Shown piece by piece: positions 1,054 through 29,978 of a stretch of DNA of 29,978 nt. Both the position numbers and the translations under genes were made by a program. Location of the stretch: IMG/VR virus record IMGVR_UViG_3300020042_006030, positions 1 through 29,978 of that record, one strand, 5' to 3'. This DNA is from a virus. Its lineage: Duplodnaviria > Caudoviricetes. Under the pieces are notes generated by a model. That model was not told the origin of the DNA and made no database searches. It saw only the letters and a list, made by a program, of their open reading frames with translations. The stretch's first letter is position 1. Every line of letters begins with the position of its first letter.

Positions 1054-3395
1054 CCTTTACACATAACCAAATAGTAAAATTATTACAAGACACCGCAACT
1101 AATCACCAAATGATTAAGAGCTTTGGCTTTGGTGATATTTGGGAAGAGGGGGCTACTGAACAATTACAGCCACTTGTATTATGGGGTATTGATTTAGAAC
1201 ATAAAATAAATAGAAACGTACTGAACGAAACATCTACTATTGACTTAAATTATAAGTTAATTATAATGGACTTAGTAGATAAGGGTGAGAACATGGAGAA
1301 CGATGTTTTAAGTGACACGCTCCAAATTACCTTAGACGTTTTAGCTGTTTTAGGATATAAGAGTATGTATCCTTTTTATCAGTTTAGTTACTCAACTATA
1401 AAACCTTTTACTGAAAGATTAGATTCTGAATACACAGGGCATGAAGTGGATATTACTTTCACAATGCCTTTCGATAATAATATTTGTCAAGTCCCTTTAG
1501 ATAATTTACCTACTAGCTACACACCAACTCCTTCAGGGGGAATAGAATGGAGTGCAGTACCAAGCTCACGTACATTAACAATTAACGGGACTACTTATGA
1601 TCTCAGTGAAAATAGAACTTGGACTATAAGCACAGGAAATACTTACACCGCAGGAACAGGATTAAGTTTAACAGGTACAGTATTCAGTATTGATAACACC
1701 GTAGTTACTTTAACGGGTAGCCAAGCGTTAACAAATAAGACAGGAAACATATCACAATGGACAAACGATAGTGGATATTTAACATCTTTAACAGGGGCGG
1801 TTACATCGGTTTCAGGAACAATAAATAGAATAACATCAACTGGGGGAGCAACGCCCGTTATAGATATTTCGGCTTCTTATGTAGGTCAAACTTCATTAAC
1901 TACATTAGGAACAATAGCAACAGGAACATGGCAAGGTACTTCTATTTCTACTACTTATACAGACGCTAAGATTAAAGGTTCATTAGCTGCAACTGCGGGT
2001 TTAATAGGATACGGAACAGGAACGGCAGATACAATTTCAACAAATGCTAATTTTCTTTTTGATTCTGCAAACGTTGGTTTAATTGTTGGAGATACTGCTT
2101 TAGGAGCTTCAACAGATGTAGCAAGGTTTCAAAAAAATCAAAACGCTGCGACTGCTTTTAGAATTTACAATACAACTTCAGGAACGGCAGCCCAATCTTT
2201 CATACAATTATTAGATGGTACTGATGCTTTTAATTTCGGATTTACAAATACTTCTTTTACTCCTTCAGGTGCAATAACGGCTAAGACTGCTTATTTACAA
2301 GGTACGGGAACGGGTGGATTAGTTTTACAAGCTACTAATGCAGGTGGAGCTATCCAAATGACTACGGGAGGTGCTACTGTAAGGCTTAGTATTTCAAGTG
2401 CAGGTGTAATGACCTATGGGACTTCGGCTGCGAGTAGTCAACATATTTTTAACGTAGGTTCAAGTACTTCTCAAATAATTTTAAGAGAAAAAATAGGAGC
2501 TACAACACAAGCAGCTTTTTATATCGGGGTGGCTTCGGGTTCTGAAAGTTCTACTAACTATACTATAAATTACAACGGTACTTTACAAATAAATAGTCAA
2601 AGCACAACTACCCCTCTGTCTTTAAAGACTGGTGATAGTGCGGTTTATACTGTTACACCTACTAATACATCTTCAGTTGCTCATCACCAATGGAGTCAAA
2701 GGACGAGATTAACATTAACTGCATCGACTACGGTTGCTTCTTATTTATTTGGAGGTAATACTCAGCAATGGGCTACGGGTGCTATAACTAATCAATACTT
2801 TACACACTTCTTATCTAATACGATGGGATTTGTTGCTGCTAGTACAGCGACTAATGTTTTTGGGGTTTTTATTGAACAGTCAACAGTAGGAACTAATGCA
2901 GTAATTACAAACAACTACGCTTTAGGATTAGCTTATGATAGCAGTAATTATTTAGGAGTTGCAGTTTCAAGTGCGGGTGTTATAACGCATACTGCGGTGG
3001 GTGCAAGTGCAAGACACAACTTCGCTAATAAACTATCATCAACTCACCCAACAGGAGGTATAGGATATAATACAGGGGCGGGGGGAACAATTACTCAAAT
3101 AACAAGCAAAGCAACAGGGGTTACTTTAAATAAAGTTTGCGGTCAAATCACAATGAATAACGCTGCTTTATTAGGTGGAGCTTCTGTGACATTTACATTA
3201 ACTAATAGTGCTATCACAACAACAGATACTATTCATACTAATTACGCTAGTGGTGGAACTATTGGGGCTTATAGAATAGATGTAGATAATATAACCGCAG
3301 GGACTTGTGATATAACTGTAACAAATTTGACAGGTGGAAGTTTAAGTGAAGCAATAGTAATTAATTACGCAATTTTAAAAGGAGTAGCAGCATAA
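1050..3395 (+). CDS. Virion protein: N-terminal tail-terminator-like domain fused to Thr/Ser/Gly-rich fibre domains
   Basis: First ~150 aa globular (NHQMIKSFGFGD...KPFTERLDSEYTG...FDNNICQVP); remainder has fibre-type motifs RTLTINGTTYDLSENRTW, YTAGTGLSLTGT, TLGTIATGTWQG and C-terminal TQITSKATGVTLNKVCGQITM. Confidence 0.7.
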   Translation: MTFTHNQIVKLLQDTATNHQMIKSFGFGDIWEEGATEQLQPLVLWGIDLEHKINRNVLNETSTIDLNYKLIIMDLVDKGENMENDVLSDTLQITLDVLAVLGYKSMYPFYQFSYSTIKPFTERLDSEYTGHEVDITFTMPFDNNICQVPLDNLPTSYTPTPSGGIEWSAVPSSRTLTINGTTYDLSENRTWTISTGNTYTAGTGLSLTGTVFSIDNTVVTLTGSQALTNKTGNISQWTNDSGYLTSLTGAVTSVSGTINRITSTGGATPVIDISASYVGQTSLTTLGTIATGTWQGTSISTTYTDAKIKGSLAATAGLIGYGTGTADTISTNANFLFDSANVGLIVGDTALGASTDVARFQKNQNAATAFRIYNTTSGTAAQSFIQLLDGTDAFNFGFTNTSFTPSGAITAKTAYLQGTGTGGLVLQATNAGGAIQMTTGGATVRLSISSAGVMTYGTSAASSQHIFNVGSSTSQIILREKIGATTQAAFYIGVASGSESSTNYTINYNGTLQINSQSTTTPLSLKTGDSAVYTVTPTNTSSVAHHQWSQRTRLTLTASTTVASYLFGGNTQQWATGAITNQYFTHFLSNTMGFVAASTATNVFGVFIEQSTVGTNAVITNNYALGLAYDSSNYLGVAVSSAGVITHTAVGASARHNFANKLSSTHPTGGIGYNTGAGGTITQITSKATGVTLNKVCGQITMNNAALLGGASVTFTLTNSAITTTDTIHTNYASGGTIGAYRIDVDNITAGTCDITVTNLTGGSLSEAIVINYAILKGVAA

Positions 3396-8100: not shown

Positions 8101-9429
8101 TTATAAATCGTAATTAGTTATTATCATTGTTTCTCCAAAAAACTTAGCCGGGACTTCGCCTATCTTTAATCCCCTACCTTTTGCAATATCTATCATTAAC
8201 AAATCAGTAGCATCAAGACTATGTGTTCCGTAAGGGATGTTTTCTAACATTTGATAGTAAGAAGGTCTAAATAAAAAAGTAACAATATCCGCATCCTGTT
8301 CTATACTTCCTGAATCCCTTAAATCGCTTAGGATTGGTTTTTTAGTATCTCTTAACTCTACTGCTCTACTTAACTGACAAAGTGCAATAACAGGGCAATT
8401 AAGCTCTTTTGCGGTGCTTTTTAAAGCTCTTGAAATCTCACTTACTTGTTGTTCTTTATTATTTCCCTGACCAGTCATAAATTGTAGGTAATCCACTACA
8501 AACAATCTAACCCCTTTTTCGTAGTACATTTTACGGGCTTTGTTTTTAAATTGATTAGTTGAAAGATTAGAACTACCATCAAAATAAATAGGTGCATCTG
8601 TTAACTCTCCGCAGTTATTTTCTACATAAAGTAACTCCCCCGCATTCATTCCCTTTTGGTTTATTTTAGTATTGTTTATTCCCGTATGTGATGAAATCAT
8701 GCGACCTACTAATTCATTAGGGGTCATTTCAAGACTAAATATTCCAACAGGTATAGACTGAGTCATAGCGGGGTATTTAGCTAATTGTAAAGCAAAGGCA
8801 CTTTTACCCATTCCCGGTCTTGCTCCAACTATTATTAAGTTTCCGTTTTGCCAACCTCCTGTAACATAGTCAAGATTTTTAATACCTGACATTATACCCG
8901 TTTTAACATTTCCCGCTAATACGTCCTTTTGGTCTTTAACAATCTCTAAATGTATTTCCTTAATTGTCTTTATGTTTGAGGATGCTATTGAGGTTAAGTC
9001 TTTAAGCTCTTTTTCAATAAACCCGATAACCTCAAAACAATCGGATGCGGTCTCATTTACCTTATTTTCAATATTTAAGGCTAGTTTTTTAAGCTCTCTT
9101 TCTAAATATTTTTGGTAAATAATAGCTGAATAGGTTTCTATGTTTGCTAAAGATGCGGGTTTAGTTGTTAGCTTGTTAAGATAGTAGGCTACCGATGAAC
9201 CTTCCAATTCCGCAACCCCAAGCCTTTTAAGCTCGTTTATTACGATAAATATATCTACACTACCCTTTGAGGATAAAAGTGTCTGTATTGCCTTAAAAAC
9301 TAGCTTATTCTCGTTTTTATAGAATACGTCATCTTTTAAAAATTGGATTTGATTAACCGCTAAAGCTGAATCGGTTATAATAAACCCTAGTACTGCGTTT
9401 TCTAATTCTATGTTATAAAGTTCTTTCAT
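8101..9429 (-). CDS. dnaB: Replicative DNA helicase DnaB
   Basis: Walker A GARPGMGKS, FSLEM, VVDYLQ, QLSRAVE, SDLRDSGSIEQDAD. Confidence 0.97.
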   Translation of the reverse strand: MKELYNIELENAVLGFIITDSALAVNQIQFLKDDVFYKNENKLVFKAIQTLLSSKGSVDIFIVINELKRLGVAELEGSSVAYYLNKLTTKPASLANIETYSAIIYQKYLERELKKLALNIENKVNETASDCFEVIGFIEKELKDLTSIASSNIKTIKEIHLEIVKDQKDVLAGNVKTGIMSGIKNLDYVTGGWQNGNLIIVGARPGMGKSAFALQLAKYPAMTQSIPVGIFSLEMTPNELVGRMISSHTGINNTKINQKGMNAGELLYVENNCGELTDAPIYFDGSSNLSTNQFKNKARKMYYEKGVRLFVVDYLQFMTGQGNNKEQQVSEISRALKSTAKELNCPVIALCQLSRAVELRDTKKPILSDLRDSGSIEQDADIVTFLFRPSYYQMLENIPYGTHSLDATDLLMIDIAKGRGLKIGEVPAKFFGETMIITNYDL

Positions 9430-10007
9430 CCTAATAATGCGTTACGGGTTTGAATTTTAGTTGGTGGGTTTTTAAGTAACCACCGTTTAAAGTGAAATAA
9501 AAATTTAGCATAAGTTGGATAAGAAACTTCACAACACTTCTTAAACTCCTCAATTCTAGGTAGTAATAATTCCTTACTAGATAAAGTCATCCTAGCTATA
9601 TCCTCTAAATCCATTGAGTTTGGTAAATCTTTAAACCATTGTGTGAGTTGGTTAACACTTACATTAACATTATCATTAACTGTTACTGTATCTGTTACTG
9701 TAACATTAACAGTTGACTTGCTTAAACTAGGTTCAACCTGCTTCAACTTGCTTCGTTTTTCTGCACTTGCTTTACCTCCCTTAGAGTAACCTTCTTTTGT
9801 TTTCTCCCACTCCTTTAAATCTCTCTTTAATTGTTGCTTAATTGGTTCAAATACAATATCTAAGAGTTCGTTAGGTGCTTCAGGGTTTAAGTCATTTATG
9901 TACCTTAAATAATGTTTAAAAAGGAGTCCAGCGTTAACATCACTAAGTTTCTCAACCGTATGAATAACGTCACAATATAGTAAAACGGACTTTTTATTAG
10001 TTGCCAT
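9426..10007 (-). CDS. Replication initiator (DUF6291-like N-terminus)
   Basis: KKSVLLY...LSD..AG.LFK...FEPIKQQLKRD, GGKAS, VNVTVTD linker; immediately upstream of dnaB. Confidence 0.7.
   Translation of the reverse strand: MATNKKSVLLYCDVIHTVEKLSDVNAGLLFKHYLRYINDLNPEAPNELLDIVFEPIKQQLKRDLKEWEKTKEGYSKGGKASAEKRSKLKQVEPSLSKSTVNVTVTDTVTVNDNVNVSVNQLTQWFKDLPNSMDLEDIARMTLSSKELLLPRIEEFKKCCEVSYPTYAKFLFHFKRWLLKNPPTKIQTRNALLG
9661..9772. repeat. Iteron-like repeats inside initiator gene (putative ori)
   Basis: AC(T/C)TGCTT at 9716, 9736, 9746, 9765, next to AT-rich CATTAAC and TGTTACTGTA repeats (9661-9710). Confidence 0.55.
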
Positions 10008-10143
10008 TATTAAGTTTTAAGTAGTCAATATTAGAAAATTTATATCCTTCTTTTTCAACTGCTTTTTGACAAGCCTCAAAGATTGTAGTTGCTAAGATTA
10101 TAAACCTTGAACCATTTGGTGATAATATATTAAATGAAGTCAT
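9997..10143 (-). CDS. Small hypothetical protein (48 aa, not in ORF track)
   Basis: MTSFNILSPNGSRFIILATTIFEACQKAVEKEGYKFSNIDYLKLNNGN, overlapping the initiator start. Confidence 0.6.
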   Translation of the reverse strand: MTSFNILSPNGSRFIILATTIFEACQKAVEKEGYKFSNIDYLKLNNGN

Positions 10144-10242
10144 AAAAAAATATCCCTACTAATCAAAGGCAGTCCAGTCGTACTGAAAGTACTAAGGCAA
10201 TGAGTTTCGGGAATATGTTTAAAATTTTTCATACTGAACTGC
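10144..10242 (-). ncRNA. Structured leader RNA / attenuator candidate upstream of replication genes
   Basis: AUAUUCCC-GAA...AGUA-GGGAUA followed by U7; alternative 10-bp pairing GCAGUUCAGU/ACUGGACUGC; internal hairpin GUACU-UUC-AGUAC. Confidence 0.6.
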
Positions 10243-10302
10243 GAGGTAAAGATAATTATTATTTCTAAAGGTTTAATCTCAAAGTAAAAAAGATATTAAC
10301 AA

Positions 10303-10692
10303 TTAAAATAGTTTAACATTATATCTTTGGTTTCCAAAATTACTAACTACGTTCCATTTAACAACCCCGTTAACTGTTACTGTTATATCATTAGCCTGAT
10401 AAGAACAAACACTACAAGCCTTAGAATAAAAGAATAAGTCTATACTATCAGATTGTAATATTTTAGTAGTGTATTTAACTAATGAATAAGTATAAGCGGA
10501 GTCGTGGGATAAGGTGTCATCACCCGCCCAATTAATGTTAATCCATCCGTTGCCTCCGTAGCATTTAGAATAAACTGTAACTGTTTTATCGGGTACTGCG
10601 GTTACTATTGGAGTCGTTACTGTTGTTGGTGCTACTGTTGCTTGTTTCTTACATCCCGTAATAAACAAAGCTAGAATTATTATTTTTTTCAT
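10303..10692 (-). CDS. Lipoprotein (possible superinfection exclusion)
   Basis: Signal peptide II MKKIIILALFITG-C, Thr/Pro linker, beta-rich domain. Confidence 0.75.
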   Translation of the reverse strand: MKKIIILALFITGCKKQATVAPTTVTTPIVTAVPDKTVTVYSKCYGGNGWININWAGDDTLSHDSAYTYSLVKYTTKILQSDSIDLFFYSKACSVCSYQANDITVTVNGVVKWNVVSNFGNQRYNVKLF

Positions 10693-11231
10693 GGTTTTAT
10701 TTGTGTTTTATGTCCGTTAATTTTTGATTTGTAAAACATTATTAATTCAGCTATCTCAGGTATTGATAATTTAGTGCTTAGTTTCCTTTGCTCATAAAGA
10801 GTATCAAACCTATCCTGACCTATTCTTAAAGCTAATCCTTTAGCGTATTCAGCTATATTTCCATGTAAGTGTTGATTGCATCGGACACATTGAGCGTGGA
10901 CGTTATCCTCATTAAATCTTAGGTTAGGATAAGCCCCACAACTAAAGTAATGACCCGCATCGTATTTCTCTCCTAGTTTACCTCCACAGCTTATACAGGA
11001 TTTGTTTCTATCTCTTAGCCGGATATAAGTGTTAAACAATGTTTGAAGTAAGTTAATAGAGCTTTGATGAGTTACTAAAGCCTTCTTCATTTCCTTAACT
11101 CTTTTAGTTACTTGTTTTTTGGAATTAAACTCTAAGGCACAATCCATACTACAAACTACTTGAAGGGGTTGATAAGGTAAAAACTCCTTTAAACACTGTT
11201 TACACTTCTTTTTTTTAGGCTTATAGTTCAT
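10689..11231 (-). CDS. ninG: NinG/Rap-like recombination endonuclease
   Basis: KCKQC...VCSMDCA, FNTYIRLRD..CISCG, DAGHY, LRFNEDNVHAQCVRCN. Confidence 0.92.
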   Translation of the reverse strand: MNYKPKKKKCKQCLKEFLPYQPLQVVCSMDCALEFNSKKQVTKRVKEMKKALVTHQSSINLLQTLFNTYIRLRDRNKSCISCGGKLGEKYDAGHYFSCGAYPNLRFNEDNVHAQCVRCNQHLHGNIAEYAKGLALRIGQDRFDTLYEQRKLSTKLSIPEIAELIMFYKSKINGHKTQIKP

Positions 11232-11552
11232 TTAATTTTGTTTATTAGCTGATATTGTTGAACGTAAAGACTCTAAAACCTTATAACCTGAAGACATCAA
11301 GTGTCTTATTTTATAGAGTTCAGGTACTTTATAATCTGATTCTCTTTCTTTTGATGCGTTACTTCCTTTAGTTTCAAAGTAAACCCCTAGCCATTGATTA
11401 TGATAGTAGATTCTATGTTCTGCTAACCAGTGAAGGTTAACGGATAAGTCTCTTAATATCTCGGATTGTTCCTGAGTAAAAGAAAGTTTTTTAGTTTCAT
11501 ACTCACTAATGGACTTGTTAATCTTTTCTAGTATTTCTTCTAAGGGTTTCAT
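11232..11552 (-). CDS. Hypothetical helical protein
   Basis: 106-aa ORF, coupled operon. Confidence 0.65.
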   Translation of the reverse strand: MKPLEEILEKINKSISEYETKKLSFTQEQSEILRDLSVNLHWLAEHRIYYHNQWLGVYFETKGSNASKERESDYKVPELYKIRHLMSSGYKVLESLRSTISANKQN

Positions 11553-11890
11553 TTGTTTCTTTGTTGAAATTCATACTCCTTTAAACGCTTATAGGCATTA
11601 TTAGATTGTTTCTTCATTTCATAATGAACGGCATCATCTTTAAAAAAGTCATCTTTAACCTCAATCCTTTTAAGTTTATAATCCTCTAAAGTCAAACCGA
11701 ATGCGTTTACTATCCTTTCAAATAAGTCTTTGTCTAATTCGATTGTAACCAATTCTAAAGGCTCTTCTTCAGCATCTTCGCTTACATAGACACAATTTTC
11801 TTTACAGTCTGAACATCTACCTAAACCCCAAGAGTCGCAGTCCCCGTTACCAACAGGATAAGCACCGCAGCAATTACTTACTTTTCTCAT
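11549..11890 (-). CDS. Hypothetical protein with N-terminal Zn finger
   Basis: SNCCGA...GRCSDCKENC. Confidence 0.65.
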   Translation of the reverse strand: MRKVSNCCGAYPVGNGDCDSWGLGRCSDCKENCVYVSEDAEEEPLELVTIELDKDLFERIVNAFGLTLEDYKLKRIEVKDDFFKDDAVHYEMKKQSNNAYKRLKEYEFQQRNK

Positions 11891-12303
11891 TATTCAGCCA
11901 TTTTAATTACAAAGTCAAACAATCTTTTAGCAGTAGTTTCAACTTCATCTAAGCTCATACCCATTTCAATACCGTAATTAGTCGCATTAGTCATTGAGTT
12001 TTGAGCTACTATTAATCTTTGTACTCCTTCATTTTTTACAACGGGATAACTTGAATTATTATTAACTACGTTTGGATTACTAACAACCTCTTCTTTTTTA
12101 ACTGACTTAGCTTTGTTGTACTCCTGACCTTCGTCTGTAATTTCATAGGTTAATTCCCAACCTACTTTCTGTTCATTCTTTTTACCGATGCTAATTTTAT
12201 CTCCATTCTCCATTAATAGATTGTGGTAGATTGTAGTCCCGTAGTTGTTTGTAAACGGCTTAGAGCTTACTACTGTTTTGATTTTACTTGTTTTGATTTC
12301 CAT
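11890..12303 (-). CDS. Hypothetical protein, possible OB-fold ssDNA-binding protein
   Basis: Beta-rich N-terminus, Asn-rich linker, IVAQNS helix; located in recombination region. Confidence 0.4.
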   Translation of the reverse strand: MEIKTSKIKTVVSSKPFTNNYGTTIYHNLLMENGDKISIGKKNEQKVGWELTYEITDEGQEYNKAKSVKKEEVVSNPNVVNNNSSYPVVKNEGVQRLIVAQNSMTNATNYGIEMGMSLDEVETTAKRLFDFVIKMAE

Positions 12304-12331
12304 TGTTTTGGGTTTTATTTGGTTTATAGGT

Positions 12332-12544
12332 TTATTTCCAAGTTTTATTTATTGAGTTAAGGGTTACAGATACCATTCCCTTTCTTAAAGTAGTCCAAAC
12401 ATTAGTGTTAGTTGTTTCAACCTCTGTTTTAAAAAGTCTTGCATATCCCTCTATAACCGTTAAGTCAATAGAGTAGATTTCAAAATCAGCCTCAATGTCT
12501 AAGTTTAAAAGTTCCTCGATGTTTGTTAGTTTCATATTAATCAA
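12332..12544 (-). CDS. Hypothetical protein
   Basis: ORF in dense early operon. Confidence 0.55.
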   Translation of the reverse strand: MINMKLTNIEELLNLDIEADFEIYSIDLTVIEGYARLFKTEVETTNTNVWTTLRKGMVSVTLNSINKTWK

Positions 12545-12755
12545 TTTTAAATTCGTTTAACCATTTTTTAACTCTCGTTTGTTCTATTTTAAAGTGAACC
12601 GATTTATTTCTTTTTACCTGACCTTTATCAGAAGTGTGTCTATTAATCTTTGATAAGGCTAAATCCCACTTTCTCATAATTTGGATTTGGTCGTGTCCTA
12701 ATTCGTGACGGCTTAAAAACCGTACTGAACTGAATGTTGGGTCGTTTGTCTTCAT
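12537..12755 (-). CDS. Hypothetical basic protein
   Basis: ORF in dense early operon, TAATG coupling. Confidence 0.55.
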   Translation of the reverse strand: MKTNDPTFSSVRFLSRHELGHDQIQIMRKWDLALSKINRHTSDKGQVKRNKSVHFKIEQTRVKKWLNEFKID

Positions 12756-13042
12756 TAGTTGTTTAGTTTAAATTTATAATTCGGTCTTGAGTATAATTCT
12801 ATTTTTTTAATCCCGGTATTAACTAAAAGCCCTTGTTTAGTTAAAGTAGTTATAGCCCTTCTAACGCTTGTTATTAAGAAACTATGTCCTTTAGCCTCTA
12901 ACTTATTTAAAGCCTCCCAAGCCGTTAAAGCCCTATCAGGATTGTCTTGAAATAACTCTAAGATTATAATATCCTGAGCATCGGCAGAGTTAGTGAAACT
13001 CATTAGCATTTGACCGCTTTCTTCTGTTGAGTTGTAAAACAT
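12755..13042 (-). CDS. Winged-helix DNA-binding protein
   Basis: LTAWEA...ITSVRRAITTLTKQGLLVNTG wHTH pattern. Confidence 0.7.
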   Translation of the reverse strand: MFYNSTEESGQMLMSFTNSADAQDIIILELFQDNPDRALTAWEALNKLEAKGHSFLITSVRRAITTLTKQGLLVNTGIKKIELYSRPNYKFKLNN

Positions 13043-13043
13043 A

Positions 13044-13286
13044 TTATTTAACTTTTATTGTTTCTAATACTTTATTAATCATTTCAGGGGTATATTCATT
13101 TTTTAATAAGTAACGCTCCATTTCTCCCTCTTTAATACAATCAGGACAGTAACATTCAGAACACCAAGCATCATAAGCTAATAATCTAAAGTCCCACATT
13201 ACCCCACATAAAACACAGGTGCGACCATCAGCAAACTTCTCAGGTGTGCTTAAATGATATTCTCTTAATTCATCAGGAGTGTCCAT
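13044..13286 (-). CDS. Zn-finger hypothetical protein
   Basis: CVLCG...CSECYCPDC. Confidence 0.6.
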   Translation of the reverse strand: MDTPDELREYHLSTPEKFADGRTCVLCGVMWDFRLLAYDAWCSECYCPDCIKEGEMERYLLKNEYTPEMINKVLETIKVK

Positions 13287-13945
13287 TACTTTAATTTTTC
13301 TAAAATCTGATTAATAGTTTCAAGTGATACATCAAACTGTTTTGAGCAACCAATCATAATTTTGGCTTTAGAATTTTCGCTGATTTTTTTAGCAGCTTCC
13401 CAAAAATCCCTAGAGAATAAATGACCATCAATTTCTGTTTTTTGTTGAGTTAGAATCTTCACCTCATACCCCCCTATCTTAATTACTTCGTCTTTAATGA
13501 TGGTAGCCCATTTGCCTTGTTTGTAGATGCAATGTCTACCGTAACCAGTGGTGTGTAATTCGTCATTTTCAAAATCAAAAGTATCACCCGAACCAACTTT
13601 ACCTATTTCGTGATTATAAGCCTTTACTGAATTTGTTAACGCATTAAATCTAATCTCAAACTTAAACCCTCTCTTAATAGCTTCCTTAGTTAAGGCTTCT
13701 TGTATCTCGGATGGGGTGGCGGGGCGTAAGTTTTGAAGTGTCCAATTAGAGCCTTGTTGCCATCCGTTTGAATCAAATCCGTAACAATCATATCCGTTTA
13801 GATTTTTTAAATAAACAAGATGAATACTAGAATCATTATAGCCATACCATTTATTTAATTCAGGTTTAACTAATGAAGCTTTAAACTCTTCAAATCTTTT
13901 ATCTTGCTCTGCCTTAAAGTCGGCTAACTGTTTTTCTATTGTCAT
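13286..13945 (-). CDS. Hypothetical protein
   Basis: 219 aa; LRPATPSEIQEALTKEAIKRGFK and IYKQGKWATII segments. Confidence 0.7.
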   Translation of the reverse strand: MTIEKQLADFKAEQDKRFEEFKASLVKPELNKWYGYNDSSIHLVYLKNLNGYDCYGFDSNGWQQGSNWTLQNLRPATPSEIQEALTKEAIKRGFKFEIRFNALTNSVKAYNHEIGKVGSGDTFDFENDELHTTGYGRHCIYKQGKWATIIKDEVIKIGGYEVKILTQQKTEIDGHLFSRDFWEAAKKISENSKAKIMIGCSKQFDVSLETINQILEKLK

Positions 13946-13948
13946 ATC

Positions 13949-14098
13949 TTATTTTTTAGTTTGTTTCCAAAATTTAACATCGTTCTTAAAAAAAGACTCC
14001 CATGTTGGTTCTTCATCTTTAAACTGATTAAGAACTATTAGCACACAAGCACCAAAGGCTAAGGCTATACAAAGTACTAATACTACAATTTCTAACAT
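13949..14098 (-). CDS. Small membrane protein (49 aa, not in ORF track)
   Basis: MLEIVVLVLCIALAFGACVLIVLNQFKDEEPTWESFFKNDVKFWKQTKK; fills the gap exactly. Confidence 0.65.
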   Translation of the reverse strand: MLEIVVLVLCIALAFGACVLIVLNQFKDEEPTWESFFKNDVKFWKQTKK

Positions 14099-14100
14099 AA

Positions 14101-14301
14101 TTAAGATTTTAATTCGTTTAACATTCGCTTTCTTTCTAATAGATAAAGGTTTATTTTATCGTGTGTGGACTGAGAACAAGAACCGTTTAAAGCGTTGTAA
14201 ACCGTTGCTGAGGTAATCCCCATTTCTCTAGCTGCTCTACTAACATCTAAGTTGTTAAAGTGCTTAATCCAAATGCTTAAAGTTGTTTTTTCTATTTTCA
14301 T
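14101..14301 (-). CDS. Cro/XRE-like HTH regulator
   Basis: VSRAAREMGITSATVYNALNG helix-turn-helix, 66 aa. Confidence 0.75.
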   Translation of the reverse strand: MKIEKTTLSIWIKHFNNLDVSRAAREMGITSATVYNALNGSCSQSTHDKINLYLLERKRMLNELKS

Positions 14302-14681
14302 GGTTGTTTAATTAATTGCAATCGGCTACTTTAATGTTTGGAGCAAAATTTCGCCGACTCGTAAAAGTTAGGTTAAATATTGTTTATAAAATCTCTAAGT
14401 AATTGTAGGTGCTGCCCTGAAAGAGTAATTCCATTTATTTCAAAAATATCACTCATTCCATCCTCACAATAACTTTTTATTATCATAGTTTGCTTGTTTG
14501 AATTTTTGTCCTGAGTTGTGTGGTTGTAATCTTTGTACTTAGTTGTTGCATCAATTGTAGTGGTTTTCTTTCCATAATCGTCACTTGTTGTTTCTAGGGT
14601 TGTTTTTTCTATTTTCATGGTTGTTTAGTTAATTGCGGTACGGTACTCCTTTCGTTTCCCATACTCGCAAAAGTTAGGTTA
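14282..14681. repeat. Bipartite direct repeat flanking ORF 14373-14618
   Basis: 38-bp block at 14282-14319 and 14599-14636 (1 mismatch); 19-bp block at 14357-14375 and 14663-14681 (1 mismatch). Confidence 0.92.
14373..14618 (-). CDS. Hypothetical protein
   Basis: 81 aa; shares N-terminal MKIEKTTL with the HTH gene. Confidence 0.65.
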   Translation of the reverse strand: MKIEKTTLETTSDDYGKKTTTIDATTKYKDYNHTTQDKNSNKQTMIIKSYCEDGMSDIFEINGITLSGQHLQLLRDFINNI

Positions 14682-14951
14682 TTCAGTGGCTTTTTTAATT
14701 GCTTTATAAGATTTAATTATTGCGCTTTCGATATCCCCTTTAGTTACCACGGCAGTATGTAAGTTTTGGAGAGCCTCTAATAGTTCAGGGGCGGAGGCGA
14801 TTAGTTTTTGATTAGCGGTTATTTCTTCGTTATGGTCGCTCCCCATATTTAAAGCCATCCCTCTAACTGTTATGGTTTTACCTTTTGAATCAACAATACT
14901 ATTGTATTTGTTAATTGTCCACGGCGCTGGTGTATGTTTTAAATTTTTCAT
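14679..14951 (-). CDS. Conserved phage early protein (HTPxPW...ANxxLIAxAPELLEAL type)
   Basis: KHTPAPW and ANQKLIASAPELLEAL motifs. Confidence 0.75.
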   Translation of the reverse strand: MKNLKHTPAPWTINKYNSIVDSKGKTITVRGMALNMGSDHNEEITANQKLIASAPELLEALQNLHTAVVTKGDIESAIIKSYKAIKKATE

Positions 14952-14979
14952 TTTTGCGAGTTTTAAATTGTTTATACGT

Positions 14980-14987
14980 CAAATATA
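14980..14987 (-). promoter_or_regulatory. Leftward early promoter -7 box (TATATTTG)
   Basis: Exact TAnnTTTG match 28 nt upstream of ATG 14951 in the divergent region. Confidence 0.7.
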
Positions 14988-15086
14988 ATGGATTCTTTTT
15001 ACATAAAAACTATAAAAGTTAAACTATTTTCATATAGTTTAGCTAAAGTGTTGATAACTAGATTAATAAAATTAACCTAACTTTTA

Positions 15087-15094
15087 TAAATTTG
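15087..15094 (+). promoter_or_regulatory. Rightward promoter -7 box (TAAATTTG)
   Basis: Exact TAnnTTTG match 8 nt before ATG 15103. Confidence 0.65.
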
Positions 15095-15102
15095 AGTCCA
15101 AG

Positions 15103-16190: not shown

Positions 16191-16476
16191 ATTTAAATTA
16201 CTAGACAAGGTAGTCTATGAGTATGTTAATTTCGACAAACCTATTAATATTGTACCAATATCACAGGGTTGTAGTGGCGCACCTTGTTATTTAAACAATG
16301 ATAAGGTTGTGGGTATTATTAAAAGAATTGAAACTACCCACGTTGAGGAATATTACTTTAATAATCCTGATGATTATGAACAAGAAGAAGAAGGTGAAAA
16401 CAACTACACTTATACAGAATATTTTATAACAGGTTGGGATAAACCATTAACATCATATATGATTAAATATGCCTAA
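16180..16476 (+). CDS. Hypothetical protein
   Basis: 98 aa, TKFKLLDKV start, acidic middle. Confidence 0.6.
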   Translation: METKFKLLDKVVYEYVNFDKPINIVPISQGCSGAPCYLNNDKVVGIIKRIETTHVEEYYFNNPDDYEQEEEGENNYTYTEYFITGWDKPLTSYMIKYA

Positions 16477-17665
16477 GATACTTTTAGTTGCTCAACAACA
16501 TACAGGAGGGGTAGAATACTACCGAATGATTAAACCTAACAATGTACTTCGTAGGCATTACCCAGACTTTCACTTCACAAAAGTTAACGCTATTCATCCA
16601 ACTGAGGACTTAGACGGTAGGCAAATAGTAAAGAAAGAAGGAGAGCCGGATGTAGAGTTCGCTTTCCGTATCAATGATGACTATTTAAAGTCTTTTGACC
16701 TTATCCATTTTTGTAGGGGGATAGCTTTAAAAGACTTATCACAAGGCGTAGCGGATCGCTTAAACAGATTAGGCGTTCCCTTTGGATTAGACTTAGATGA
16801 TTATTGGGAATTACCCGATGACCACTTACTCGCAGTAACTTATAAAGAACAAGACACCACAAAGAACATTATAGACTCTATTAAATTAGCTCACTTTGTT
16901 ACAACTACAACGCCTTACTTAGCTAAAGAAATAGAGAAATACAATAAGAATGTTCACGTAATTGAGAACGGGATAGACTTACAAGAACCTGCGTGGCAAC
17001 CTGACTTTGAAACTAAAGACGTTATGAGGTTTGGATTTATGCAAGGGGCTACTCAGTTAAACGATATGAAGTTTGTTGGCAAAGGAATACAACGAGTATT
17101 TGAAAGCAACTTAAAAGGCTATCAATTCGTTATAGGAGGGTTTAACGGGGTGGCGGGTAAAGCATCGAGCTACATTGGATATGAGAAATACATAACTAAC
17201 AATTTAAACGGACTACATAAATATCCTGAATACCAAAGATACTTATACAACTGTAAACAAGAAGGAAACGAGGCTTGGAAAGATATGCCTTATCGCAGAT
17301 TATGGGCTACAAAGGTTGAAGAGTTTGGCTACCAATATAACGAGATAGATGTTTCAGTAGTTCCTTTATTAGATACTAGATTTAATAATTGTAAGTCAGA
17401 GCTTAAATTAATTGAGGCGGGTGTTAAATGTAAAGCGGTTATAGTAAGTAATGTTAAGCCTTATGACTTATTAGCTAATGATAAGAATAGTTTTATGTGT
17501 GATAACACTTACGACTTTTACAGAAAGGTTAGATACTGTTTAGAGAATCCAAACGAGGTTAACGATAAGGCTTGTCAGTTAAGATATGATGTAGTTACAA
17601 AACATTCTTTACAAGTTTTGACAGATAAAAGATTATCAATATATTCGCATTATATTAAAAAATGA
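16469..17665 (+). CDS. GT-B fold glycosyltransferase (GT4-like)
   Basis: GVEYYRM..P, DLDDYW, VTTTTPYLA, VIENGID, PLLDTRFNNCKSELKLIEAG...VIVSNVKPY. Confidence 0.88.
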   Translation: MPKILLVAQQHTGGVEYYRMIKPNNVLRRHYPDFHFTKVNAIHPTEDLDGRQIVKKEGEPDVEFAFRINDDYLKSFDLIHFCRGIALKDLSQGVADRLNRLGVPFGLDLDDYWELPDDHLLAVTYKEQDTTKNIIDSIKLAHFVTTTTPYLAKEIEKYNKNVHVIENGIDLQEPAWQPDFETKDVMRFGFMQGATQLNDMKFVGKGIQRVFESNLKGYQFVIGGFNGVAGKASSYIGYEKYITNNLNGLHKYPEYQRYLYNCKQEGNEAWKDMPYRRLWATKVEEFGYQYNEIDVSVVPLLDTRFNNCKSELKLIEAGVKCKAVIVSNVKPYDLLANDKNSFMCDNTYDFYRKVRYCLENPNEVNDKACQLRYDVVTKHSLQVLTDKRLSIYSHYIKK

Positions 17666-18300
17666 AAATAGGAATTGGAATAACAACTCACAACAGACCC
17701 GAACATCTTGAATGGTGCGTTAAGAGTATTCATAAGTATACTGAGAATTGTAAGGTATATATTTACGATGATAAAGAATCTAAAGGCGTTGCTTATTCTA
17801 AAAATATGTGCCTATACAATCTTAAAGACTGTGATTATATTTTCCTATTCGATGATGATTGTGCTCCTAAACAAAAAGGATGGGTAGATTTATTTATTCA
17901 TTCAGGAGAAAATCATTTACTTTATATGAATAAGTCTTATGAGTATACTTGCGAGTTTGGGGATATAGAATATTATACTAATTGTTCGGGAGTATTTATG
18001 TTCTTAACAAAGAAAGTTATTGAGAAAGTTGGGTACTTTAATCCTGAATACGGAAGATACGGACTTGAACACGCTGGTTATTCTAAACGAATTTATCACG
18101 CAGGATTAACCAATACAAACTTTCAAGTTATTAAAAGAAGTTCAGACTACTTACACGCTATTGATTTTGACGGTGAGGTAGGGTTCAAACACTTCTCAAC
18201 TGTAACAGGAGAAGAGAGAAAAAAATGTGAAGAGATAAACGACCCTATATACAGATACGAAACATCAACTAGGAATTATTACTATGACTTCAAGCCTTAG
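17662..18300 (+). CDS. GT-A glycosyltransferase (GT2-like)
   Basis: IGITTHNRP, GVAYSKN, FLFDDD, VGYFNPEYGRYGLEH. Confidence 0.9.
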   Translation: MKIGIGITTHNRPEHLEWCVKSIHKYTENCKVYIYDDKESKGVAYSKNMCLYNLKDCDYIFLFDDDCAPKQKGWVDLFIHSGENHLLYMNKSYEYTCEFGDIEYYTNCSGVFMFLTKKVIEKVGYFNPEYGRYGLEHAGYSKRIYHAGLTNTNFQVIKRSSDYLHAIDFDGEVGFKHFSTVTGEERKKCEEINDPIYRYETSTRNYYYDFKP

Positions 18301-18988
18301 AATATTATTTCACATCCCAACACGTTCAAGACCTGATAGGGCTAGGACTGCGATACAAAACATAATTGATAATTGTGTTGATACTAACTATTTAATATTA
18401 GTTAGTTGTGATATTAACGATGAGGCTATGACTGGCTTTACGTTTCAACATCCAAAGGTTTTAATTCATTGGGGTACTTCATTAAATAAGATACACGCTT
18501 GTAACCGTTCAATTCATTTAATTAAAGATTGGGATATACTAGTAGCAAGTAGTGATGATATGATGTTCCAAGTTGAGGGGTTTGATAATGTTATAAGATA
18601 CTCGTTTAGGTCAGATGTATTAAGATTTGCAACACCTATTGAAGATTATAATTATAACCTAAACCAATTTGTTCACTTCTCTGACGGTAATCAGGGGGCT
18701 AATGTTTGTACCTTATCTATTATGGGTAGTGAGTATTACAATAGAGATAACTATGTTTATCACCCCGACTACGAGAACTTGTGGTGTGATGTTGAAGCGG
18801 GTGACGTAGCAAAGATAAGAGGGTGTTATAAGTATATGGGTAACGATTTAATAATCTTTAGACACCTTCACCCTGCATGGGGTTATCCTGTTCACGATGA
18901 CCAATACAAAGCCCAAGATAATTTACAAACAAGTGAACGAGATAAATCCGTATATTTAGCACGTAAAGAAAGGAACTTTGATTTATGA
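18284..18988 (+). CDS. GT-A glycosyltransferase (GT2-like)
   Basis: IPTRSRP, KIHACN, VASSDDM, YHPDYENLWCD, HLHP. Confidence 0.8.
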   Translation: MTSSLRILFHIPTRSRPDRARTAIQNIIDNCVDTNYLILVSCDINDEAMTGFTFQHPKVLIHWGTSLNKIHACNRSIHLIKDWDILVASSDDMMFQVEGFDNVIRYSFRSDVLRFATPIEDYNYNLNQFVHFSDGNQGANVCTLSIMGSEYYNRDNYVYHPDYENLWCDVEAGDVAKIRGCYKYMGNDLIIFRHLHPAWGYPVHDDQYKAQDNLQTSERDKSVYLARKERNFDL

Positions 18989-19539
18989 AACTTAGTATTT
19001 TAATACCTACTATTCCTGAACGTAAGGAAATGTTTAATAGGCTTATCATAGCCCTGATAGCTCAATGGACTGAAGGTGTTGAGATTTGTAGTAATGATGA
19101 CGAGGGTTCAATAGGAACTAAACGTAACCAACTACTTCAAGAAGCTAGTGGCGAATACGTTTGCTTCATTGATGATGATGATACAGTAAGCTCAACTTAC
19201 ATTCAAGACATCCTAACTGCCATTGAATCCAAACCCGACTGTGTATCTCTCAGAGGAGTAATAACGTGGGACGGTAGTAACCCTGAGATATTTGAACACT
19301 CACTAAGATACCCCGCATACGTTACACATACATTACCTGTTAATGGTATTAAGTATGAGAGATACCCAAATCACCTTAACACTATTAAAGCCTCAATAGC
19401 TAAACAGTTTAAGTTTCCTGAGATTAACTTTGGAGAGGATAGTGATTGGGCTAAACAGATTCACGACTCAGGATTAATTAATACAGAAGTTTACATAGAT
19501 AAAGTATTGTATCACTACTTATTTAAACCTAACAAATGA
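18985..19539 (+). CDS. GT-A glycosyltransferase (GT2)
   Basis: LSILIPT, SIGTKRN.LL..ASGEYVCFIDDDD, FGEDSDW. Confidence 0.92.
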   Translation: MKLSILIPTIPERKEMFNRLIIALIAQWTEGVEICSNDDEGSIGTKRNQLLQEASGEYVCFIDDDDTVSSTYIQDILTAIESKPDCVSLRGVITWDGSNPEIFEHSLRYPAYVTHTLPVNGIKYERYPNHLNTIKASIAKQFKFPEINFGEDSDWAKQIHDSGLINTEVYIDKVLYHYLFKPNK

Positions 19540-20408
19540 AGTGCATAAGCTACGCCTTATTCGGCTATAACAAAGAACGTAACGCTAACTGTTTCGACTT
19601 CGACTCTTATCTTAGAGGCTTAATGATTTCGATTAGAATGAATCGTTTATTATATCCTGATTGGGAAATAGTATTAAACTTAGACCAATCGACTTATGAA
19701 GGGTATAAAAACCTATTCGATAGATTACCTATCACTTGTATGATTCACGAACCCGCTCCACTTTGTAAGGCTATGCTTTGGAGAATGAAACCAATTTTTG
19801 AAATGGAACATGGGCAATGGAAATACTCTCACGTACTTTGTAGAGACTTAGATAGTCCGGCTACATACCGAGAAGTCCAAGCCGTTAAGTATTGGATAAT
19901 GAAAGAGAAAGCATTACACGCAATTACAGACTCAGTAAGTCACGATGTACCATTAATGGGAGGTATGATAGGAGTAATGACTAAACACTTTAACGAGAAG
20001 GTTGGTAACTCATGGGATAATATGTTAATGGGAACTACAATGGACTTTAGCTTAAAAGGCTCAGACCAAAACTTTCTTAATCATTATGTATATCCTAAGT
20101 TCGCAACTAAAGGAACTGAGTCGATTACACAACATTATTTTAACGGTTACTCAAATACATTCTTAAACGATTACCATACTTGTACGTGTCCACCAACTGC
20201 GGGGCATAGAAGCGATTGTCCTAACAATACAGAGATAGATTTACCTTACAAGTTAGCAGAGAGTAATTCAGTTTGTGGACATATCGGGGCGAGTGGTTGG
20301 TATGAGACCGCTTTGTTTAAATTCCTTCGTGAATATTGGAATGAGTTTGATGACTTATTAGAAGTAGAGAAAGAGTATAAACATATATTTTATTGGGCAA
20401 ATGCTTAA
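19536..20408 (+). CDS. Putative GT-A-like glycosyltransferase
   Basis: ISYALFG, LYPDW, MLWR, RDLDS (DxD), H..PLMGGMIG, DQNFL. Confidence 0.65.
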   Translation: MKCISYALFGYNKERNANCFDFDSYLRGLMISIRMNRLLYPDWEIVLNLDQSTYEGYKNLFDRLPITCMIHEPAPLCKAMLWRMKPIFEMEHGQWKYSHVLCRDLDSPATYREVQAVKYWIMKEKALHAITDSVSHDVPLMGGMIGVMTKHFNEKVGNSWDNMLMGTTMDFSLKGSDQNFLNHYVYPKFATKGTESITQHYFNGYSNTFLNDYHTCTCPPTAGHRSDCPNNTEIDLPYKLAESNSVCGHIGASGWYETALFKFLREYWNEFDDLLEVEKEYKHIFYWANA

Positions 20409-20517
20409 CGAGTTTGGACAATATGAACCACAAGACCCTAAGACGGGTTGGATATTTTTAATAATAACAACTATAATAATATGGACAATAATAATAGTAA
20501 CATTAAAAAGTATATAG
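20401..20517 (+). CDS. 38-aa single-TM peptide overlapping next gene (not in ORF track)
   Basis: MLNEFGQYEPQDPKTGWIFLIITTIIIWTIIIVTLKSI. Confidence 0.5.
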   Translation: MLNEFGQYEPQDPKTGWIFLIITTIIIWTIIIVTLKSI

Positions 20518-21236
20518 TAGTCTCAACAAACAACAACCCCGACTACTATTTTTATCTACCGTACATTGAGAAAGCATGGGCTACCTATGGTTGGGACTTA
20601 TGCGTTATGTTAACACATGATGTAGATGTAAACAGATTAGAAGTAAATAGAAAGGAAACTTTACTCTGTGTATTTCCTAGAGTCGATGAGTTAAGAACAG
20701 AAACAGTAGCTCAGGCTTCACGTTTATACGCCTCTCACTATTTACCAAAGGATGCCTTAATAATGACTAGCGATATGGATTTACTTCCTTTAACTAATTA
20801 TTGGAATCCGAACCCAAACGAAGTAACTAACTATGGACACGATTTAACAGGTCACTCGTTCTTCCCGATGGGATATACTGCTATGCTTGGTTCACGTTGG
20901 GTAGAGGTAATGAGACTAACACACGACCAAAAAGCTGATATGTTAAGAGATGCACACGAATTTAAAATAGCCTTTAGTGAGGATTGGGAGAAGTGGTGGA
21001 ATCATGATTGGACAGTATTAACAGATAGATTAAGAGTAGTCCCGGTTACTTCTATTGAACGTGGCAAACGTCCTGACGGTGTATTTGCTAAAGGTCGAAT
21101 AGATAGAGGGGACTCAATGAAGTTAATACCTAGAGAGGATTGGATAGACGCACATTGTGAGAATCATAATGTTAAGCATCCTGATAAACTTAATAGATTT
21201 TTACATATATTTGAAACTGTTTACGGTAAATTATGA
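20481..21236 (+). CDS. Putative GT-A-like glycosyltransferase
   Basis: VVSTNNNPDY, AQASRLY, MTSDMDLLP (DxD), IDAH; ATG 20481 preferred over TTG 20448. Confidence 0.62.
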   Translation: MDNNNSNIKKYIVVSTNNNPDYYFYLPYIEKAWATYGWDLCVMLTHDVDVNRLEVNRKETLLCVFPRVDELRTETVAQASRLYASHYLPKDALIMTSDMDLLPLTNYWNPNPNEVTNYGHDLTGHSFFPMGYTAMLGSRWVEVMRLTHDQKADMLRDAHEFKIAFSEDWEKWWNHDWTVLTDRLRVVPVTSIERGKRPDGVFAKGRIDRGDSMKLIPREDWIDAHCENHNVKHPDKLNRFLHIFETVYGKL

Positions 21237-21832
21237 TAGTAACCTGTGCCTTTAGAGAGCCTTATCTCTCACATAACACTAAGCAACTTGAAACTTTAAA
21301 GGGAGTACCCGTACTTTCTTTTAGAGATTGTTTACCTTATGGTGAAGGATTAGTAACTGAGAATATAGTAGAGAGGTTTCAAAAGTCATTGTATGGGTTC
21401 AAGCCTCATGCTATTCAAAAGGCTATTGACTTAGGCTTTAAGAAAGTTATTTGGTTTGACCCTTCAGTATATCCTTTAGAGTCAGTACAGACTATCTATG
21501 ACCAATTAGATAAACATCCAATGTTAGTTATAAAAGGAGATAGGCATATAAAAGATATGACCGCTAAATGGTTGTTAGATGAATTTAAACATTATGACAT
21601 TAATCATATCGGAGGCACTATTTACGCTTTTAATTTTAATAATCAAAATACGTTAGACTGTTTTTATAATTGGAGGGACTTAGAAATTAGCGGTTACTTC
21701 GGTGACCAAGAAGAATTTATGAAAGGACATTGGGCAGATGAATCTTGTATGGCTTTATGTATGGCTATTTGCGGAATAGAGCAAGTAAGTCTAAATTTTA
21801 AATATAGAAACCAAAAGGATGGAACTCTATAA
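21233..21832 (+). CDS. Putative nucleotide-diphospho-sugar transferase (GT-A-like)
   Basis: YGFKPHAI, VIWFDPS, GHWADES resemble the KP...W.D.S...H..DQS pattern of GT-A proteins. Confidence 0.6.
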   Translation: MIVTCAFREPYLSHNTKQLETLKGVPVLSFRDCLPYGEGLVTENIVERFQKSLYGFKPHAIQKAIDLGFKKVIWFDPSVYPLESVQTIYDQLDKHPMLVIKGDRHIKDMTAKWLLDEFKHYDINHIGGTIYAFNFNNQNTLDCFYNWRDLEISGYFGDQEEFMKGHWADESCMALCMAICGIEQVSLNFKYRNQKDGTL

Positions 21833-22673
21833 AGACCAAATACACAACGCCCCATTCATTGAGACTTGTACTCACATTTGGAGTGATGATGTTTCCCGTC
21901 CTAACAAGTCGGGGGTTTGGGAATACTACTTATCAATATCTAAAGAGTTTAATAAGCCTTTAGTTAATCAAACTAATATACCAAACAAAGCTATTATATT
22001 TGTAGGGATGTGTCATATACTTGAAAGTGTATTCGACCAACTACCAAGAGAGGGTGAATATATTATAGTACATAGAACTAATGATAGACCGTTCACAAAG
22101 CAGATGTATGACCGTAAACCAACAAGTGTTAAGTATGTTTATACAGTAGACTCAAGAGTTACTGCTGATGATGTATTCGCTATTCCTTTTGGTAATGCCT
22201 CAATTAATGGAGCTGACCCTTTTATTGAAGAAATAGCAAACGAACCTAAACGGGATGTTAGTACTCAATTATTTGTTTGTTATAACACAAACGCCTCAAC
22301 ACCGCATAGAACTGAATCTATACAAGTATTAAGAAACAAACCTTTTGCTTTTGTTTATGAACTTAACTATCCTACTATTCAAATGGCGGGAGATGAATTT
22401 TATCGTAATGTAAAGGCTCATAAGTTTACAATGGCTTTAGCCGGATGCGGTGCAGATGCTTCAAGACAATGGGCAGCTATTCAATTAGGTTCTATTCCTA
22501 TTGTAACTGATTGTCCTGAGATGCGACACTTTGAGGACTTACCGTTAATATTTTGTCCTAAAGATATGCACGAGATTACAGAAGAATGGTTATCTTTACA
22601 ATCAGTTGAGGGTAAGAGTACAGAAAGAATGAGAGCAAGTTATTGGATTAAACATATAAAAGAAAGATGGTAA
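21819..22673 (+). CDS. Exostosin/GT47-like glycosyltransferase
   Basis: HKFTMALAGCGADASRQWAAIQLGSIPIV...FEDLP, a variant of the exostosin-family F.L.P.G.G....R.WEA...G.IPV motif. Confidence 0.7.
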   Translation: MELYKDQIHNAPFIETCTHIWSDDVSRPNKSGVWEYYLSISKEFNKPLVNQTNIPNKAIIFVGMCHILESVFDQLPREGEYIIVHRTNDRPFTKQMYDRKPTSVKYVYTVDSRVTADDVFAIPFGNASINGADPFIEEIANEPKRDVSTQLFVCYNTNASTPHRTESIQVLRNKPFAFVYELNYPTIQMAGDEFYRNVKAHKFTMALAGCGADASRQWAAIQLGSIPIVTDCPEMRHFEDLPLIFCPKDMHEITEEWLSLQSVEGKSTERMRASYWIKHIKERW

Positions 22674-23242
22674 ACATAGCAGGACATACAATAGAAGAAT
22701 CGTTACTAGGTGACGGTGTTATTATCGATGTAGGTTGTAGAGACTTTCAATTCGCTAACTACTTCTATCCTAATACAGTCTATTGCATAGACCCCGACGA
22801 AAATGTATTTAAGGGTGCTAACATCTTAGACTCCCGTATTCATATGAACGTAGCTATCTCCGATAAAACAGGAGACTCAGGTTACTATGAGAATGGTGAG
22901 GCTACTTGTTTACAAGAGATTGACCCCGATAAAAACCACCCATTTAAACCTTGTAAGACAATTACAATGGATGACCTATACAAGATTACGGGTGAGAACG
23001 TAGATGTCTTAAAACTTGACTGTGAAGGTGCTGAGTACATTATCTTAGGGGAAACCTTTAGACCTATTCCTAAACAAATAAGTGTGGAGTTTCATAATCA
23101 CTGTGTACCCGCATTACATCAAGAGAAGTATAAGGAAATAGTTGAGAGATTATCAGAACACTATACAATGCACAACGACGTTTGGGAACAACGTCATGGA
23201 TGCGGATTTAATTTTTGGGACACATTATTTATAAAAAAATGA
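22667..23242 (+). CDS. FkbM-family SAM methyltransferase
   Basis: IIDVGC, NVAISD, ITMDDL, VLKLDCEGAEY, QISVEFH. Confidence 0.9.
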   Translation: MVNIAGHTIEESLLGDGVIIDVGCRDFQFANYFYPNTVYCIDPDENVFKGANILDSRIHMNVAISDKTGDSGYYENGEATCLQEIDPDKNHPFKPCKTITMDDLYKITGENVDVLKLDCEGAEYIILGETFRPIPKQISVEFHNHCVPALHQEKYKEIVERLSEHYTMHNDVWEQRHGCGFNFWDTLFIKK

Positions 23243-23793: not shown

Positions 23794-23867
23794 ACTTCGC
23801 CCTACTAAACTACCAAACAGAACACTACCTAACTATAATAGGTGAAATAACTATAATACTAAACTAA
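23790..23867 (+). CDS. 25-aa coupling peptide (not in ORF track)
   Basis: MNFALLNYQTEHYLTIIGEITIILN; ATGA overlap upstream and TAATG overlap with terS. Confidence 0.5.
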   Translation: MNFALLNYQTEHYLTIIGEITIILN

Positions 23868-29936: not shown

Positions 29937-29978
29937 CTATATTCTAAATTGACTGTGATATTAAATACTCTATCGTTA

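Follow-up and report, generated by a model that had tools for sequence, protein, structure and literature searches.

A duplicated stop-to-start spacer with a candidate loop E hairpin, and a distinct replication-gene leader, in the early region of a putative Bacteroidota phage

The virus record IMGVR_UViG_3300020042_006030 (Duplodnaviria; Caudoviricetes), analyzed here as one complete window of 29,978 nt, carries three minus-strand strings in which GAA is followed by AGTA (AGUA in the RNA), all of them within a leftward run of small genes from ~14950 to 6870. A sequence-only reading had described these strings as hairpins of a single new cis-regulatory RNA family in early-gene leaders; all three (here E1, E2 and E3) were confirmed on that strand, close to where it had placed them. 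E1 and E2 each belong to a copy of the same complete spacer, which extends from the stop codon of one gene to the start of the next. This duplicated element is real, though small, and adds a new version to the intergenic cassettes of phages, while the homologs of E3, which lack AGTA, place it in a different leader family.

Two copies of one stop-to-start spacer

Both repeat copies lie on the minus strand. Copy 1 (14599..14681) contains the stop codon of open reading frame (ORF) A, a U-rich flank, E1, an A/C-rich initiation region and the first 20 nt of ORF B; copy 2 (14282..14375) contains the ORF B stop codon, E2, the initiation region and the first 20 nt of a probable Cro-like helix-turn-helix (HTH) gene. 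Each copy thus begins with the stop of one gene and reaches into the seventh codon of the following one, and both following genes begin with MKIEKTTL. ORF A (14679..14951, minus strand) encodes 90 aa of a family of unknown function (phrog_1273 / P22 Y8K6-like). ORF B (14373..14618, minus strand; 81 aa) belongs to no family and has a repeat copy on either side. The HTH gene (14101..14301, minus strand; 66 aa) has four database matches, itself among them, and only weak, sub-cut-off Pfam HTH matches (best E 0.0018). Because E1 and E2 are copies of one repeat, they are not independent.

The E1 hairpin (14633-14670, minus strand) has a 5+6 bp stem with a bulged A, the GAA/AGUA module, A.G and C-G pairs, and a GAAA tetraloop. 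Its 5' side reads TTGCG (14670-14666), the bulged A, GTATGG (14664-14659), GAA (14658-14656) and A-C-GAAA-G-G; its 3' side reads AGTA (14647-14644), CCGTAC, and CGCAA finishing at 14633. E2 (14316-14364, minus strand) keeps the stem register and the GAA/AGUA module around a different, 19-nt apex, with TTACG (14364-14360), A, GTCGGC (14358-14353) and GAA on the 5' side and AGTA (14330-14327), GCCGAT, and TGCAA finishing at 14316 on the 3' side. In both, AGUA faces GAA beside a canonical 6-bp stem, and the ATG begins 14 nt past the hairpin end, which bears out for these two the proposal that the hairpins end near start codons. The far side of the motif may be closed in E1 by A.G, C-G and the GAAA loop, and in E2 by a 4-bp TTTG/CAAA helix with an uneven linker; the apical loops share nothing.

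The two copies have diverged unevenly. Identity is 53/56 in the flanks, 5/12 in the upper stems and 8/8 in GAAA/AGTA (Fisher p 8e-5 and 0.015), so that the module is kept between these two sequences. Among the 11 stem pairs, three are changed on both sides, two on one side, one is broken and five are invariant; every two-sided change falls in the upper stem and the broken pair in the lower. Nevertheless 21/22 stem cells remain paired, compared with 18-50% in slid registers. The claims that the stems differ but still pair, and that GAAA and AGUA are invariant, thus stand for E1 and E2.

A strict GAA...AGTA scan of the window (flanking stem of at least 5 pairs, at least 3 of them G-C) returned only E1 and E2, compared with a mean of 0.16 hairpins in 100 dinucleotide shuffles, none of which reached two. 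A position-aware scan returned three hairpins versus none for all 35 letter-permuted control motifs, a comparison that is circular because the motif had been chosen from the same window. The predicted fold of E1 has -13.9 kcal/mol and a z score of -2.79 (14625-14675), with an upper-stem pair probability of 0.99 within a 751-nt context. For both elements the coding strand folds better than the antisense strand (E1, -13.9 vs -8.8; E2, -9.7 vs -8.0), and the start regions that follow are mostly unpaired (mean unpaired probability 0.84 after E1 and 0.78 after E2). These data support the view that E1 and E2 resemble, in their behavior, an RNA hairpin under selection on one strand and carrying an AGUA/GAA module; according to the folding models, the core of the spacer likely forms a loop E hairpin on the early mRNA.

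In the available text of PMC1865062, AGUA-GAA is one of four derived sarcin-ricin / loop E (bulged-G) sequences. As predicted from its sequence, E1 also has AGUA facing GAA in a hairpin, with a GNRA loop as cap. In the ribosomal sarcin-ricin loop, AGUA lies 5' of the GNRA loop, whereas in E1 the order is reversed, with GAA on the 5' strand, then GNRA, then AGUA on the 3' strand; therefore, E1 is not a mimic of the ribosomal factor-binding site.

A variable block and the search for further members

ORF A, E1, ORF B and E2 make up a 674-bp block (14300..14973, minus strand) between a promoter-like box and the HTH start. The box, TATATTTG (14980..14987, minus strand), is a perfect match to the Bacteroidota -7 consensus TAnnTTTG given in the available text of PMC6847099, with a putative function; as the window contains 45 perfect matches versus 43 by chance, only its position argues for it. 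The block is variable among relatives, according to contigs from five DNA runs aligned to the region at 80% likeness (single contigs, none spanning E1 or E2). In one contig of run X3 (151 nt, depth 4, 3 differences), 14299 is followed directly by 14974, so that all four components are absent and TATATTTGACGT is set right against the ATG of the HTH gene. A contig of run X1 carries 83 letters of different sequence from 14301 to 15049, and run X2 has a loose end at 14301, with the minus-strand TATATTTG box four bases before the ATG; the HTH gene thus stands immediately 3' of a promoter-like box in relatives. ORF A sits elsewhere in the X1 contig, adjoining 13044-13048, without a hairpin behind it, and is likewise present in locus L037 without a hairpin after it. 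On the plus strand of the window (15064-15102), TAACCTAACTTTT likewise immediately precedes a perfect box, TAAATTTG, which lies 8 nt upstream of ORF 15103 and is divergent from the box at 14987. TAACTTTT was considered as an operator and rejected, since it occurs nine times in comparison with 6.1 expected, a count reached by 17/100 shuffles.

The E1/E2 block thus goes with genes that are variable among close relatives, as do the promoter early stem-loop (PeSL) cassettes of T4-type phages, repeated stop-to-start units with a stem-loop according to the available parts of PMC2839356 and PMC4122927. E1 and E2 likewise form a repeated stop-to-start stem-loop unit beside variable orphan genes in the early region, a plausible recombination joint. 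They differ from PeSLs in having no clear promoter, only two copies, an internal loop E motif and Bacteroidota-type signals. A terminator role finds no sign in the sequence: no U-tract follows either hairpin, and the terminator scan called neither. In the contigs of the five runs, all of which lack coverage of both E1 and E2, neither a chimeric empty site with a single element, a further difference from PeSLs, nor mini-circles were seen.

Searches outside the window returned little. With Rfam 15, the window gave two matches at E 3-4.3, neither at E1, E2 or E3, and the loci L140, L158, L243 and L248 gave none; the expected novelty with respect to Rfam is thus borne out for E1 and E2. A covariance model built from E1 and E2 recovered only these two below E 0.3 in the window, and E3 did not match at E<=5. 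GAA/AGTA scans of 36 viral DUF6291 loci and 62 metagenome NinG loci were at control level. Flank-anchored patterns gave no match in one scan of IMG/VR and 24 in another, none of the 24 above 4/6 stem pairs. Among protein-anchored viral scans, ORF 15103 and DnaB found no relatives, and ORF A found one locus with no hairpin following. When the E1/E2 region and the clade hairpin described below were compared with cultured phages by BLAST, only chance matches resulted. No description of an E1/E2-type element was found in Rfam or in the full-text literature searched, with subscription papers largely outside and the supplement of PMC5737381 outside that search, and the six of nine supplementary files of PMC10690425 searched had no match for the motif.

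In GTDB genomes the E1 apex had 90 matches, with a longest outer stem of five pairs and nearly all inside open frames, so that no host RNA with the E1 apex was found. In IMG/VR, an E1-type apex pattern had at least 119 matches (~140 estimated). Among the matches listed, which form 64 clusters, a single cluster of 15 loci falls outside an open frame of at least 80 aa; it is one of two with four G-C outer pairs and one of two with the exact inner letters of E1, and its apex exchanges GAAA (7 loci) and GCAA (8 loci). Within this listed set, the 15-nt apex of E1 thus recurs intergenically in one unrelated phage clade, probably with a proteobacterial host. There the hairpin lies just past the stop codon of a 256-aa gene; a second small hairpin precedes it and a sigma-70-like box follows, and the 33-kb record has one copy. 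The match counts as one independent event, found post hoc. In the same clade, the intergenic DNA between the E1-like hairpin and the sigma-70-like box (L140:1020-1250; G008 ~23590-23830) is long and variable and may contain additional stems.

Two candidates were considered in phage Lillamy9-1. The one near 8010 was rejected, GAA being absent from its filifjonk9-1 paralog and from the 6H homolog. The one at 10520 has a 9-bp stem and GAA-GTAY-AGTA, 22 nt before an ATG, and is only a weak lead because 3/35 controls reach the same count. Both Lillamy9-1 (L348:7900-8110, minus strand) and filifjonk9-1 (L353:1908-2063 and 3078-3214, minus strand) also have a repeated TAAC...GTTA inverted-repeat unit between early genes, at three places in filifjonk9-1, which is presumably attC-like.

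Candidate functions of E1 and E2

The reading we favor, with somewhat less than even confidence, is that E1 and E2 serve as an RNA boundary element between cistrons and also as homology for recombination around ORF B. The hairpin would form on the early mRNA between the stop codon and the open A/C-rich initiation region, leave that region unpaired, and mark or protect the 5' boundary of the next cistron. It may be a barrier in processing or decay, whether or not a host protein takes part. ORF B would have been gained, or may still be shuffled, by homologous recombination in the flanks that the two copies share, as in T4 PeSLs. In the available text of PMC6847099, Flavobacterium johnsoniae uses an open A-rich initiation region instead of a Shine-Dalgarno sequence.

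Several results weigh against this reading. The empty site is one short contig in which both copies are missing, whereas a PeSL would be expected to leave with one ORF and one copy. The E2 fold is weak (z -1.02, pair probability 0.31-0.42), and the covariation comes from two sequences, with 64/500 shuffles reaching the same score. The covariance model detected no additional copy among 99 relative loci (best E 0.33; the five alignments displayed matched in the flank only), no match in 151 Bacteroidota genomes, and just two weak matches (E 0.02-0.05) in 25 whole viral records, both at sites where the 99-locus search had given E 0.38 and 1.2. Intergenic GAA/AGTA hairpins numbered 4 in 995 kb of related phage DNA (control mean 3.6) and 1 in a further 450 kb (control mean 1.2). 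The hairpins are therefore not enriched in these ~1.45 Mb, and a family common in related phages is not supported.

An unlikely alternative, and the one that survives best, is that E1 and E2 are PeSL-like internal promoter cassettes, in which the U-rich 5' flank is a degenerate -7 box, transcription starts at the foot of the upper stem, the loop E stem being the 5'-terminal hairpin of a short mRNA. The would-be boxes, AACTTTTG in E1 and AACTTTTA in E2, precede the upper stem by 3 nt, a distance similar to the box-arm spacing of 4-5 nt in the E3 family, and this proposal agrees with the two-sided changes lying entirely in the upper stem and the broken pair in the lower. PeSLs, too, span stop codon to start codon in the available text of PMC2839356. 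However, the boxes deviate from TAnnTTTG at one and two positions, the first T among them, and so do not count with the 45 exact matches; perfect boxes themselves are about as frequent in the window as chance would give; and no clear -33 TTTG was visible by eye.

We give still less credence to nut/boxB-like sites, bound by a phage antitermination or translation factor on a long early transcript, which is the sequence-only proposal with E3 left out. Such sites would suit the position of both hairpins, less than 700 nt downstream of the promoter-like box, and the retention of the internal-loop motif and the GNRA apex while the stems vary. On the other hand, the block is absent at this place in relatives, ORF A travels without a hairpin, the 46 ORFs scanned on this incomplete contig include no antiterminator, and the apical loops of E1 and E2 have no feature in common.

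It is improbable, in our judgment, that the elements have no special function, in which case the spacer would have been duplicated recently, template switching would have made its arms match again while GAA/AGTA escaped mutation, and the outside match would be due to chance. The existence of only two copies and the lack of enrichment in related phages are consistent with this, as is the finding that, among the apex matches listed, 6/64 clusters have at least four outer pairs, which is near chance. But stems and apex have changed far more than the flanks (5/12 vs 53/56) and still pair, and they contain G.U pairs, which template switching would not create.

Integron cassettes have inverted core sites (attC) at both ends plus an integrase. 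That E1 and E2 are DNA-level single-strand hairpin recombination sites of this kind, with the RNA motif incidental, is very improbable. Like the DUF1874 RNA motif and attC as described in the available part of PMC5737381, they are structured, have a conserved internal loop, and occupy consecutive intergenic regions, here around a variable gene; the bulged A is also kept in both copies. However, E1 and E2 are simple hairpins without an Rfam match, the attC core is incomplete, with no GTT at the 3' end, no integrase occurs among the same 46 ORFs of the incomplete contig, and the GNRA loop and AGUA/GAA are RNA motifs.

The early RNase III processing sites of phage T7, for example R1.1, are likewise hairpins that contain an asymmetric internal loop and separate early cistrons a short way upstream of start codons. 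For E1 and E2, a role as RNase III sites is nonetheless doubtful, as about 11 bp are needed between cut and loop in the available text of PMC1540722 and the short, broken helices reach that size only if non-canonical pairs count as helix, a poor fit that also counts against the boundary-element reading.

A more far-reaching reading may be mentioned, which we regard as distinctly unlikely: the GAAAC-GNRA-GGAGUA hairpin would be a portable intergenic phage RNA module across host phyla, read by one conserved host factor (a nuclease or ribosome-associated protein), and here would also serve as a gene-cassette joint that turns a leaderless Cro-like mRNA into an expandable operon.

The E3 leader and the rest of the record

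E3 lies in a leader (10140..10254, minus strand) with a TATCTTTA box (10254-10247), a TCCC..GGGA stem and a 7-U tract. Its 5' arm, GCAGTTCAGT (10242-10233), has its complement in ACTGGACTGC (10178-10169), and a 30-aa leader ORF (10140..10232, minus strand) spans E3, with a stop codon that overlaps the next ATG. That ATG opens a 48-aa ORF (9997..10143, minus strand) and not the initiator; the 48-aa ORF stands between E3 and the DUF6291 replication-initiator-like gene (9426..10007, minus strand), after which comes the DnaB-like helicase gene (8101-9429). Beside GAA/AGTA, E3 has just four contiguous pairs (TCCC/GGGA), a longer stem requiring a bulged U, and its best predicted fold is another helix (-17.2 vs -12.9 kcal/mol with TCCC/GGGA forced, giving no credit for loop E).

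A pattern from the 5' part of E3 matched nine IMG/VR loci, of which four are true homologs, all immediately upstream of DUF6291-type genes. AGTA is present in 0/4 of them and GAA in 1/4, where it is paired with TTC; the stems are canonical at that place. Since no homolog has AGTA and the E1/E2 model misses E3, the membership of E3, and with it the idea of one three-member family, is not supported. What covaries in the E3 family is instead a 10-bp helix, also the best predicted fold, that joins the arm just behind the promoter-like box to the complement inside the U-tailed stem. In a five-row alignment, with L248 and L250 identical within the helix, 50/50 cells are paired and 4/10 pairs are changed on both sides, a result reached by 0/500 shuffles. 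The leader ORF, starting right after the arm and ending over the next start, is open in E3 and in 4/4 homologs. The same pattern in 401 Bacteroidota genomes gave one match, the start of an ordinary gene.

A covarying arm that competes with a U-tailed stem, as in an attenuator, is thus present, and E3 likely controls the replication genes by translation-coupled attenuation. When paired with its complement further along the leader, the 5' arm would hide the start of the leader ORF and compete with the U-tailed stem, so that translation of the leader ORF would decide read-through into the replication genes. Attenuators controlled by an antisense RNA or a leader peptide, such as those of P4 (seqA/seqC), the P1 c4 targets and plasmid rep leaders, likewise have a promoter, a 5' arm and a complementary box in a U-tailed stem before replication genes; E3 differs by its open leader ORF overlapping the next start. 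No cognate antisense RNA was identified for E3, though no search aimed at one was made. No c4-type Rfam match was found at E3 or in L140, L158, L243 and L248. By eye, leaders of unrelated sequence with a promoter, a 5' arm and a U-tailed stem also stand before the DUF6291 matches in L006, L016, L024, L031, L035 and L036, which suggests that this layout is common before DUF6291 genes.

The X1 contig skips 10108-10707, including E3; in that relative, 10109-10706 (E3 and a 129-aa lipoprotein-like ORF, 10303-10692) is replaced by 48 other letters. The proposal that one factor acts through shared sites on the HTH gene, its neighbor and the replication operon is not supported. Close relatives are without E1/E2 (one X3 contig and one X1 contig) or E3 (one X1 contig) at these places.

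The window also encodes a terminase, NinG, an endolysin and several glycosyltransferases. The host is probably a member of the Bacteroidota, because the closest cultured relatives of three window proteins are from Flavobacterium, Cellulophaga and Bacteroides phages. About ten genes just before the terminase genes (16469-23793) include four glycosyltransferases and an FkbM-type methyltransferase. A 54-nt inverted repeat (28326-28379 and 29925-29978; 53/54 identical) surrounds a 513-aa ORF (28395-29936); with one arm at the contig end, it is either an invertible segment or an assembly artefact.

The evidence on E1 and E2 consists of two paralogous copies and one outside match, and the value of the finding is therefore moderate at present. 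The E3 leader class is real and testable. If the favored reading of E1 and E2 is true, it would show how new genes enter the front of an early operon in Bacteroidota phages, which have no Shine-Dalgarno signals: a reusable spacer would bring a boundary hairpin, an initiation region and homology for recombination. The PeSL idea would then reach beyond T4, and the element would offer a compact natural loop E hairpin for host-factor testing.

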